Source: Gamaleyavirus NAN33P5
Reading direction: 5' to 3' (one strand)
Sequence record: OZ035750.1
Length of the DNA stretch: 64,000 nucleotides
Numbering within the stretch: the first letter of the stretch is position 1; the number at the start of each line of letters is the position of its first letter. The translations under genes were made by a program, and so were the position numbers. Below are positions 36,182 through 38,326 of this stretch, piece after piece. The notes beneath the pieces were generated by a model. That model searched no databases. It saw only the letters and a list, made by a program, of their open reading frames with translations, and was not told where the DNA came from.

Positions 36182-36736
36182 TTATGCCTTTATTAATTTA
36201 ATGAGATTCTGGAAAGCTGGGAGATTTACACCAGCGTGGATTGCACCGATTGCATCGGCTAAGTGCTCATTCTTATTCAGAAGTTTGCCCTTCTTATCTG
36301 TGAGCCAGTTGGCTTCAGGATAGATAGCATGAGCAGCACGAATCATCGTGTCTTTGGATGCAGTTTTATCACCTACCAGTGCAAGTTTATTTTCAATTGG
36401 GGATACTTCAAAGATTGGGCAACCCAATGCACGGAATGCACCGATTAATCCTACGCATACACCATAGGACTTCATTCCGTTAGCAGACTGAGAGCCTACT
36501 GGTACTTCTACGAATACTGCTTTAGCAGATCGTAACCATTCTTCACAACCAAGAAACAAATCATGGGCAGCTTGTATATCTTTGGAGTTGGTTCGAACTT
36601 GTTTGTTGTGGTCAACTTCAGTTTGAACCAGTCTAAGTTCGACCTGCTCGAAGACACCGGACTCAATGTCCAGCATCCCACGAGCTAATCCCCAATTGCG
36701 GAGGCTAATGTCTGCACCGACAATTGGGATTTTCAT
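36182..36736 (-). CDS. RuvC-like Holliday junction resolvase
   Basis: 184 aa; N-terminal 'IPIVGADISLRNWG' (RuvC-like first acidic motif) and C-terminal 'EHLADAIGAIHAG' resembling RuvC 'DAADALAIA' motif. Confidence 0.5.
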   Translation of the reverse strand: MKIPIVGADISLRNWGLARGMLDIESGVFEQVELRLVQTEVDHNKQVRTNSKDIQAAHDLFLGCEEWLRSAKAVFVEVPVGSQSANGMKSYGVCVGLIGAFRALGCPIFEVSPIENKLALVGDKTASKDTMIRAAHAIYPEANWLTDKKGKLLNKNEHLADAIGAIHAGVNLPAFQNLIKLIKA

Positions 36737-37533
36737 TAACGCTTACCGAACAGAGATTTACCACCGGCTGGAGTAGTACCTGTGCCAGCACCTGGTTTAG
36801 GAGGCAAGCCACCTTTACCATTACCACCAGCAGAACCCTTGGTCTTATCACGGGTTTTACCTTTGTTCTTTTCCAGCCATGCTGCATGGAATACAGCCAG
36901 TTCTGGGGTCAGTTCTTTCTCAGCCTTCTCTGCTTCCTGAGCCTCGACGACTGTGACCAGCAGTTCCGGGTGAAACACTTTCTGAATCTCGTTTACTTCA
37001 CGAGTTTCACCGGAGTCAACGTAACCGTTGTCACCTTTAACCTGCTTAGCTTCCAGAACCTTTTCCAGAGCGAAGGTAACAGTCTGACCAACCAGATCAA
37101 CTGGAACCATTACAGACTTATTGGTTTCAGCTTTCAGGTCGAAGTCATAGACTTTAACAATCTTCTCTTCGAAGTCAGCTTCCGGCAGTTCACAACCAGT
37201 AGCCATAAGCATCATGTCATTAATGACAGTGTAACCAGGCAGGAAGTATTCTTTACCATTCTTCTCGTAAGTTGGCTTATTGCCTTTAGCATTACCAGAA
37301 GTAAAGTACACCTGAGCACGGAACTCACCAGCATCATTGCCGTCGGAACCTTTCAGGTTTTCAATGATTAACTGCATCCAGTCTGCACCAGAGTCAGCTT
37401 TACCTACGTAAGCTACTTTTACAGTACCGGTGTAGATATCAGATTCTTTTGCACCGAAGCCACCACCACCTAGGGAGTCTTTTGCAGCTTCAACGTTTTT
37501 GGTCTTTTCTTTCAAGTTACCGAACAGTGACAT
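36736..37533 (-). CDS. single-stranded DNA-binding protein (N4 gp45-like)
   Basis: 265 aa (same length as I recall for N4 SSB), Gly-rich termini, located between resolvase and ATPase. Confidence 0.5.
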   Translation of the reverse strand: MSLFGNLKEKTKNVEAAKDSLGGGGFGAKESDIYTGTVKVAYVGKADSGADWMQLIIENLKGSDGNDAGEFRAQVYFTSGNAKGNKPTYEKNGKEYFLPGYTVINDMMLMATGCELPEADFEEKIVKVYDFDLKAETNKSVMVPVDLVGQTVTFALEKVLEAKQVKGDNGYVDSGETREVNEIQKVFHPELLVTVVEAQEAEKAEKELTPELAVFHAAWLEKNKGKTRDKTKGSAGGNGKGGLPPKPGAGTGTTPAGGKSLFGKR

Positions 37534-37573
37534 AATATTTTTCCTAATAAGTGATTAACAACCAGGCAAACGC

Positions 37574-38326
37574 TTAAGCGTAGTATTCAGCCAGATGGTC
37601 TAAGAGTTTTTGGGCATCATTATCAATATAAGTCTGAGACTTATCGAACATACCCATCGGTGAACGAAGTCGTTTACCAACAGACTTCTTGGTTGGACGG
37701 GTCTGGAATACGTGCTTATAACCTAAGTCACGTTCTTCTTCCGTAATATCAAGCATCTTGTTGCCATACTTCTCCAGTTCTTTAATGTCTACACGTTCTG
37801 CGTAAACCACTGTAGAGAAGTAAGCCTCAAGGCCATTGTTCTTCAGTGAACCCTTAACCGGGATGAATGTTTTCATCACACCAGCAGCTTCATCAAGTTC
37901 ATCTTTGGCATGGGCAGTAATGATTACTGGCTTACCAAACTTAACGACCTTCTGTTGCAGCAGTATTTTAAAGAACTGTGCAAAATCCCCCCAACTTTTT
38001 TGGGTATTAGCAGATGGCAATACATACTGGGATTCCAACATGTCCATCATGAAGGTAGCAGAGTCGATAATGATACCATCAACATCATCTGCCATTTCAC
38101 CACCTGGAGATGCAACATCGAATGCTTCCCAAATCTGATATGGGTCTTCAATATTGTAGGTGTTGAACTTATTACGGAAAGGTAGACGCTTACCTGCTTC
38201 TGTATTCAAATACAGCCAGCGTTCCTGGTTCCGGATATTACGCAGTGATGCTGATTTGCCACTCGCTGAGAATCCTGCAATCAGGATTAGCTGAGTGTTC
38301 ATATCATTGGAGATTTCTTCGGACAT
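37574..38326 (-). CDS. P-loop ATPase (possible Sak4/RecA-like recombination ATPase)
   Basis: 250 aa; Walker A 'AGFSASGKSAS' near N-terminus, Walker-B-like 'IIIDSAT'. Confidence 0.45.
   Translation of the reverse strand: MSEEISNDMNTQLILIAGFSASGKSASLRNIRNQERWLYLNTEAGKRLPFRNKFNTYNIEDPYQIWEAFDVASPGGEMADDVDGIIIDSATFMMDMLESQYVLPSANTQKSWGDFAQFFKILLQQKVVKFGKPVIITAHAKDELDEAAGVMKTFIPVKGSLKNNGLEAYFSTVVYAERVDIKELEKYGNKMLDITEEERDLGYKHVFQTRPTKKSVGKRLRSPMGMFDKSQTYIDNDAQKLLDHLAEYYA

Follow-up and report, generated by a model that had tools for sequence, protein, structure and literature searches.

What do three adjacent genes on one strand of a phage genome, encoding a P-loop ATPase, a glycine-rich protein and a small protein with RuvC-like motifs, accomplish together? 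[quoted passage not shown] The answer favored here, and held to be probable, is that the trio is the distal part of the middle-gene replication/recombination operon of an N4-like (Gamaleyavirus) coliphage, working by the mechanism proposed further below; the observations beneath it are orthology to phage N4, sequence motifs, the predicted fold of the third protein, weak oligonucleotide/oligosaccharide-binding (OB)-like matches of the second, and conserved synteny. Numbered after N4, the three genes are:

37574-38326, minus strand: gp44 orthologue, a Sak4-like (AAA_24, RecA-core-only type) P-loop ATPase by family membership, 250 amino acids (aa); basis: open reading frame (ORF), N4 orthology, Pfam, PHROG.
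36736-37533, minus strand: gp45 orthologue, SSB, 265 aa; basis: ORF, N4 orthology, PHROG.
36182-36736, minus strand: gp46 orthologue, predicted RuvC-fold nuclease and putative Holliday-junction resolvase, 184 aa; basis: ORF, N4 orthology, PHROG, AlphaFold2 (AF2) model.

The bounds of the three ORFs are exactly those first described. A gap of 40 nt separates gp44 from the SSB gene, the SSB stop and the gp46 start share 1 nt (TAATG), and Shine-Dalgarno-like sequences precede gp44 (GAGGA) and, within the 40-nt gap, the SSB gene (AGGAAA). Over their full lengths gp44, gp45 and gp46 are 76%, 60% and 68% identical to their N4 orthologues, and their best PHROG matches are to families 124, 'Sak4-like ssDNA annealing protein' (5.7e-49), 743, 'single strand DNA binding protein' (1.9e-89), and 159, 'RuvC-like Holliday junction resolvase' (5.2e-42), respectively; since database homologues also number in the thousands, these are real genes and not chance ORFs. 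A 215-aa ORF on the plus strand (36724-37371) runs antisense to the SSB gene and is taken to be a by-product of coding-strand composition, not a gene.

By nucleotide comparison, which gives 96-98% identity to sequenced phages, the window is the genome of a Gamaleyavirus (G7C-like, N4-like Schitoviridae). The stretch of about 6 kb around the trio (window 35700-41700) shares 97.6% identity with Klebsiella phage vB_Kpl_K57alpha1.2 and about 96-97% with Escherichia phages G7C, Mimir124, KKP 3715 and others, all of them Gamaleyavirus. A plus-strand ORF of 3456 aa (21722-32092) corresponds in location to the giant virion RNA polymerase and is flanked on both sides by long same-strand gene blocks; the window therefore shows an N4-like genome, reversed in orientation relative to the N4 reference. 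In both the G7C and the N4 record the gene series runs gp39 DNA polymerase, gp40, gp41, gp42 exonuclease, gp43 primase, gp44, gp45 (ssb), gp46 and gp47.

The identity of the middle protein is the first step of the argument. It aligns with N4 gp45 (N4SSB) at 60% identity over 265/265 residues (E 4e-101). The description 'SSB-sized' holds in that 265 aa is the exact length of N4SSB, but the protein is larger than a bacterial SSB; its Gly-rich character is borne out (12.8% Gly overall and 34% in the last 35 residues). Three short features of the protein may bear on its function:

37306-37308, minus strand: Tyr76 of the SSB, equivalent to N4SSB Tyr75 (alignment with N4).
36739-36759, minus strand: C-terminal tip KSLFGKR, residues 259-265, which follows a disordered Gly/Pro-rich linker and corresponds to the N4SSB 'activating region' (translation check, N4 alignment).
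37519-37530, minus strand: N-terminal SLFG motif, residues 2-5, which nearly repeats the C-terminal SLFG (translation check).

Tyr75 of N4SSB is reported, as quoted in PMC2784036, to be essential for single-stranded DNA (ssDNA) binding, and its counterpart Y76 is at least 90% conserved among 43 family members. The tip reads KSLFGKR in gp45 versus KSLFGKK in N4, so that S260 and K264 are kept and K265 becomes R265, which is still basic; in N4 these three residues are reported to constitute the activating region for late transcription (Miller et al. 1997, as quoted in PMC2784036; also PMC4496689). All of the same 43 members have F262, S260 and L261 reach at least 90% conservation, and a wider set of 120 SSB homologues has an xLF motif within the last 12 residues in 118 cases, an N-terminal xLF/SLFG-type motif in 99 and both in 98. 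The SSB of phage HK620 begins with MSNVIF. N4SSB is essential for replication and activates the E. coli σ70-RNA polymerase at late promoters, an activity for which DNA binding is dispensable and the C-terminal residues are essential, its target being the C-terminus of the β' subunit (PMC4496689). The assignment of gp45 as the N4SSB orthologue is thus supported, and with the DNA-binding and late-activation residues kept, the earlier remark that this SSB may be dual-function is a reasonable one; ssDNA coating and late-promoter activation are established for the N4 protein and would carry over to gp45 by analogy.

The predicted structure of the SSB has a mean predicted local distance difference test (pLDDT) score of 83, with a beta-rich core at about residues 30-230 scoring above 90 and low confidence for N-terminal residues 1-24 and for the Gly/Pro-rich C-terminal linker (236-259). 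The core finds weak fold matches only, mostly to OB-fold ssDNA-binding proteins. As for relatives outside the N4-like group, the HK620 SSB also matches PHROG 743 (1.4e-65), and a custom hidden Markov model (HMM) built from 237 N4-type SSBs ranks it as the top match among 153 background ORFs (E 6.5e-5, the next unrelated ORF being at 0.65). Direct comparison of the two proteins is weak (BLASTP E 1.7; hhalign 22% probability), and the relation is drawn from the shared PHROG, the custom HMM and the literature, in which Hutinet et al. 2018 (PMC5928155) already reported it. When representative sequences were searched with the SSB profile, the best 150 matches listed were all full-length N4-type proteins, which is the part of the family that this search covers.

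The second step concerns the ATPase, for which the comparison proteins fetched were the biochemically characterized Sak4 of HK620 (hkaL) and the neighboring SSB (hkaK). Pfam AAA_24 (PF13479) matches gp44 at 42.2 bits against a cut-off of 27, over residues 14-218 and as the single match, whereas HK620 Sak4 itself scores lower, at 30 bits; a length of 250 aa with one AAA_24 match fits the single-domain Sak4 type of about 200-250 aa. A second PHROG of the same name as family 124, family 2872, is matched at 5.5e-17, and HK620 Sak4 falls into both. The nucleotide-binding motifs are:

38252-38275, minus strand: Walker A GFSASGKS (G18-FSAS-GKS25), gp44 residues 18-25 (translation check).
38060-38077, minus strand: Walker B-like strand GIIIDS, gp44 residues 84-89 (translation check).

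The Walker A motif claimed at the outset is therefore present, and a Walker B strand can be added to it. Among 24 family members G18, S20, G23, K24 and S25 are invariant, as are G84 and D88 of the Walker B strand; the two motifs align with GESGTGKS and VIVDD of HK620 Sak4. BLASTP joins gp44 and HK620 Sak4 by two colinear segments (1e-6 and 1e-5), the first covering Walker A and GK-LPF and the second the C-terminal SPMGMFD-IDND-YY motif; hhalign gives 96% probability over 39 aligned columns, and a global alignment of 195 columns at 31.8% identity also pairs Walker B and the 'AH' strand that follows it. Family membership thus supports gp44 as a Sak4/AAA_24-type ATPase with a predicted RecA-core fold; the suggested label 'RecA-like' applies in the sense of a RecA-core-only protein. 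The gene of the cognate SSB adjoins that of gp44, 40 nt downstream here and likewise next to it in 77/77 related loci and in HK620.

A different function can be proposed from the same data, namely that gp44 is an accessory replication ATPase, a loader or partner of the gp43 primase or the gp37 helicase, which only shares the AAA_24 P-loop core with Sak4. Its gene lies directly downstream of the primase gene, the protein is the most conserved of the trio (at least 65% identity in 120 listed homologues), and its similarity to HK620 Sak4 is modest by the measures just given and is interrupted by a gp44-specific insertion of about 25 residues in the global alignment. That similarity nevertheless reaches past the P-loop to the C-terminal motif, the partner SSBs are homologous in the two phages, the order sak4 then ssb is common to both, and the N4-like gp44 has already been grouped with Sak4 in print, where Sak4 genes are recorded in N4-like phages (PMC5928155); a replication accessory is considered unlikely, and a Sak4-type ATPase is preferred.

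Other candidates for gp44 were rejected. The only NCBIfam match, to BrxF, is a sub-threshold P-loop match (18 bits against a cut-off of 50), and sequence searches of the PDB with gp44 and its family profile gave nothing significant, the one match, to WDR24, being spurious. Membership of a nucleotide kinase family, an outcome that the original prediction had set against its own reading, would have as its basis only a marginal thymidylate-kinase PHROG match (E 0.006), the sole kinase-like match found, and labels that belong to the gp41 homologue. The latter (41510-41986, minus strand) is called 'nucleotide kinase' or '3'-phosphatase, 5'-polynucleotide kinase' in some related records and has no Pfam match here.

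The third step, the nature of gp46, is taken mainly from structure prediction. The AF2 model is confident (pLDDT 91.7; predicted template modelling score 0.88), and its elements run in the order three strands, helix, strand, helix, strand, then helices. Compared with the PDB by Foldseek, its top 12 matches are all bacterial RuvC (E 1.8e-9 to 6.5e-6), with template modelling scores, normalized to the target, of 0.64-0.80; the next are chloroplast MOC1, the RuvC of phage bIL67 and poxvirus resolvases, and lower in rank stand RuvX/YqgF, the YqgF-like domain of Tex, TEFM and a terminase nuclease domain. An RNase H-like/RuvC fold is thus clearly predicted for the resolvase candidate. The RuvC-like motifs noted at its two ends are also found, as the Asp of N-terminal 'VGADIS' (D9) and as C-terminal NEHLADAIGAIHAG, and the residues that may form the active site are placed as follows:

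36710-36712, minus strand: gp46 Asp9, predicted first catalytic carboxylate (invariance; RuvC alignment through family member P0116).
36506-36508, minus strand: gp46 Glu77, predicted second catalytic carboxylate (invariance; FVEVP against AIE of RuvC by HMMER and MAFFT).
36254-36265, minus strand: gp46 His158 to Asp161 (HLAD), predicted third and fourth catalytic residues (invariance; translation check).

D9, E77, E157, H158 and D161 are invariant in the gp46 family. The link to RuvC in sequence is made by P0116, which is 55% identical to gp46 and directly matches D. radiodurans RuvC by phmmer (E 1.7e-4); in this alignment the RuvC equivalents stand opposite the Asp of GxDP (gp46 D9) and the Glu of FVE (gp46 E77), and at the position of Asp9 VLGMDPSLRNWGL of P0116 aligns with VLGIDPGLANLGL of D. 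radiodurans RuvC. H158-x-x-D161 fits [D/H]xxD ([DH]xADA), which we take to be the corresponding RuvC motif, and H158 and D161 would accordingly be the third and fourth catalytic residues. Weak Pfam RuvC matches are obtained for 18/34 members of the family, the best at 5.1e-6. A RuvC-fold nuclease is therefore the supported assignment for gp46, as far as the model carries it.

A RuvC fold need not mean junction resolution, and gp46 could act in flap or primer removal, in general trimming of branched replication intermediates or in host DNA degradation. The fold is common to proteins with other roles, as the lower-ranked matches illustrate; gp46 reaches no Pfam RuvC score, and it exceeds bacterial RuvC in length by about 25 residues and has additional sequence around residues 39-48, modelled at low confidence. 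Set against this are the best 12 structural matches, which are genuine RuvC resolvases, and the group after them (MOC1, bIL67 RuvC, poxvirus A22-type), which are junction resolvases too, as well as the invariance of the catalytic-type residues and the constant linkage of the gene to those for Sak4 and SSB. Such a role is judged quite unlikely as a separate explanation, and it overlaps with junction resolution, as phage junction resolvases typically have broad debranching activity.

The fourth step is whether the three genes belong together. Synteny was sampled in the 80 best viral contigs encoding gp46 relatives (48-99% identity), all N4-like, with neighbors located by tblastn. Among these contigs 77 loci extend far enough upstream, and every one keeps the order sak4, ssb, ruvC-like on one strand; 65 have the three genes side by side, and the remaining 12 have about 0.7-1.8 kb separating the end of the SSB match from the beginning of the ruvC-like one. 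A primase lies upstream in 57/57 related loci and a gp42 nuclease in 55/57. As all sampled loci are N4-like, this is conservation within one family and not independent re-assembly of the gene set; what recurs independently is the sak4-ssb pair, in HK620. The conserved upstream genes, and the one that follows the trio, are:

40533-41513, minus strand: gp42 orthologue, a predicted PD-(D/E)XK (Cas4/RecB-like) exonuclease, 326 aa (PHROG, weak Pfam, N4/G7C annotation).
38383-40536, minus strand: gp43 orthologue, DNA primase, between the gp42 exonuclease and the trio (PHROG, Pfam).
35761-36180, minus strand: gp47 orthologue, 139 aa (PHROG 7641, unknown function, 2.5e-61; 'similar to N4 gp47' in the G7C record).

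The gp42 protein matches PHROG 2139, 'exonuclease', at 4.3e-152, the Cas4-like PHROG 1706 at 5.9e-12 and, weakly, Pfam PDDEXK_1 (E 0.0066). It has exactly four Cys residues, spaced C247...C308-x2-C311-x5-C317; C...C-x2-C-x5-C is the iron-sulfur pattern of Cas4/AddB-type nucleases, and the sequence thereby suggests an iron-sulfur nuclease of that PD-(D/E)XK type. The ORF listed for it (40533-41585) starts too early; an ATG at 41513, overlapping with the stop of gp41, is the likely start. The start codon of gp43 was chosen by comparison with G7C gp43, and the protein matches PHROG 2135 with E = 0 (1239.7 bits) and Pfam PriCT_1 at 30.5 bits against a cut-off of 21.1. With the conserved gp42 nuclease included, the functional block is wider than the coordinates of the trio. 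On the other side a single base separates the gp46 stop codon from gp47, which begins 2 nt downstream of that stop and is detected downstream of gp46 in just 22/76 related loci. It consists of a short N-terminal domain and a long acidic tail rich in Pro and Glu; a partial match to the PHROG 'RusA-like resolvase' (6.9e-7) may be due to this low-complexity tail and not to true homology. Past gp47, the region 35300-35760 has no more than two small ORFs (53 aa and 56 aa).

The same neighborhood allows a plainer view, in which the trio are co-transcribed replication neighbors without the interplay of a recombination module and the SSB serves mainly replication and late transcription. The genes do lie inside a long same-strand replication block (DNA polymerase, gp42, primase and the rest), and in scans for promoters and terminators such sites were not enriched relative to shuffled sequence (12 of the former against 16.5 expected; 9 of the latter against 6.8 expected), nor did the trio show a transcription unit of its own. 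The Sak4-SSB pairing, however, recurs in HK620, a temperate phage that is unrelated and in which the two proteins were shown to work together (PMC5928155), the 1-nt overlap of ssb and gp46 suggests translational coupling, and N4SSB is reported to be required for recombination besides replication, going by the title of Choi et al. 1995 as cited in PMC4496689. Mere neighborhood is thus held to be improbable, and the operon with a recombination function remains the explanation adopted.

In that operon the three proteins would act in sequence. The SSB gp45, the phage's own atypical SSB with weak OB-fold-like matches in its core, would coat ssDNA arising at replication forks or from the gp42 exonuclease, which as the likely end-resection partner is the obvious candidate source of ssDNA for SSB and Sak4; that supply is proposed from gene content. 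Onto the coated strands gp44, as a RecA-core-only ATPase of the Sak4 type, would load and anneal complementary strands, a step established only for the HK620 homologue (about 32% identical) and here transferred by analogy. The four-way or otherwise branched junctions that result may then be cut by gp46, presumably a dimer, as its fold and conserved residues suggest, which would allow genome packaging. Through its conserved basic tip KSLFGKR, gp45 would in addition contact the β' subunit of the host RNA polymerase and turn on late promoters, and late gene expression would thereby be coupled to replication.

Several observations weigh against this account. The literature searched yielded no biochemical or genetic data on gp44 or gp46 of any N4-like phage. 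No Pfam match is obtained for gp46 even at E ≤ 1, none in NCBIfam, and its score falls below every Pfam RuvC (PF02075) threshold; by that test it belongs to the RuvC fold group, and is properly called RuvC-like, but is not a member of PF02075. The MAFFT alignment with E. coli RuvC places D9 and E77 correctly and sets the last motif in a different, ambiguous register, while hhalign of the gp46 family against that single sequence is uninformative (2.4% probability). Searches with gp45 gave no Pfam, NCBIfam or PDB sequence match, and PDB sequence searches with all three proteins and their family profiles gave nothing significant (gp46 profile against RuvC, E 0.83). The high conservation of gp44 could equally fit a core replication role. 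Lastly, the SSB tail of HK620 is acidic (NDYPPF) and is needed for Sak4 loading, whereas the tail here is basic (KSLFGKR), and the Sak4-SSB contact of HK620 is therefore not simply transferable.

The tails also invite a more speculative idea, that the tip KSLFGK[KR] is a docking peptide shared by gp44 and the RNA polymerase β' subunit and that the N-terminal SLFG occupies the same pocket on a neighboring SSB. The idea comes from the last six residues of the HK620 SSB, which load Sak4 on coated ssDNA, and from the same position in N4, which activates RNA polymerase through β'; look-alike motifs stand at both disordered ends of the SSB, and the one at the C-terminus falls on the N4 'activating region'. 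We regard it as rather unlikely. If gp44 and β' did compete for the tip, it would be a switch dividing the SSB between recombination/replication and late transcription, and if the N-terminal SLFG docked as PrgE's N-terminal tail does, cooperative filaments could mask or expose the C-terminal tip according to the ssDNA load.

Some further features of the genome lie away from the trio. The Rfam scan of the window found two tRNAs only, an adjacent pair on the minus strand at 33799-33877 and 33883-33958 (62.4 and 42.5 bits); ARAGORN reads the first as tRNA-Ile with anticodon AAT, and the second has an irregular anticodon loop. The pair is followed on the same strand by a strong, terminator-like hairpin (33567-33536) whose stem measures 13 bp. 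In the closest record, GenBank OY979416.1, the best match to window 35700-41700 is at 64878-70914, where the labels are tail spike protein, endolysin, portal protein and Rz-like spanin; since these names sit on a replication block, the annotation of that record looks mis-registered against its own sequence.

Taken as a whole, all three assignments of the original prediction are supported: the ATPase as Sak4-like (AAA_24 above its cut-off, Sak4-like PHROGs, colinear homology with HK620 Sak4), the middle protein as an SSB and the third as RuvC-like. The trio is an ordinary set of core genes of a well-sampled phage family and already known, so that the value lies chiefly in correct annotation, experimental support being confined to the SSB, in N4. 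As one of the paired terminal motifs is the transcription-activating tip, experiments can approach the question of how a single SSB takes part in replication, in recombination and in late transcription.

Among known systems the nearest are N4 gp44-gp45-gp46 and the same genes of G7C, which share gene order, strand, sizes and junctions with the window, including the 1-nt overlap of ssb and gp46; G7C-like phages are about 97% identical in DNA. The SSB keeps Tyr75/76, S260 and K264 of N4, and the differences are minor, being the change of K265 to R and the sequence of the Gly/Pro linker. The HNH homing-endonuclease genes of G7C (gp41.1 between gp41 and gp42; gp47.1 after gp47) are absent from the window, where gp41 and gp42 overlap directly at 41510-41513. 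Related GenBank/RefSeq records already name the trio 'Sak4-like ssDNA annealing protein', 'single strand DNA binding protein' and 'RuvC-like Holliday junction resolvase', and genes like N4 gp44 and gp45 have been listed as conserved in N4-like phages (PMC11934525; PMC2784036).

The pair HkaL (Sak4) and HkaK (SSB) of HK620 is homologous in both proteins, with SSBs in PHROG 743 and ATPases in AAA_24 and the Sak4-like PHROGs, and it has the same gene order and keeps Walker A, Walker B and the C-terminal SPMGMFD motif. HK620 Sak4 performs ATP-dependent single-strand annealing, and the cognate SSB stimulates this by way of its six C-terminal residues (Hutinet et al. 2018, PMC5928155). The ATPases differ at about 32% identity and the SSB similarity is seen through profiles only; HK620 has a RusA resolvase elsewhere in its genome and no adjacent RuvC-like gene as here, and it is temperate, whereas the N4-like group, to which the present phage belongs, is virulent according to the literature (PMC5928155).

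For gp46 the comparison is with bacterial RuvC (PF02075; E. coli 1HJR, T. thermophilus 4LD0/6S16, D. radiodurans 7XHJ) and the RuvC of phage bIL67 (4KTW), which have the fold and topology predicted for it. Bacterial RuvC shares the Asp of N-terminal GxDP and the Glu that follows the fourth strand with gp46, whose C-terminal helix carries the invariant His and Asp; it differs in sequence, at 17-22% identity to the longer gp46, and in its RuvA and RuvB partners, of which the phage region examined has none. Also counted among the closest known systems are PrgE of plasmid pCF10 and the phage-type monomeric OB-fold SSBs (PMC11137577).

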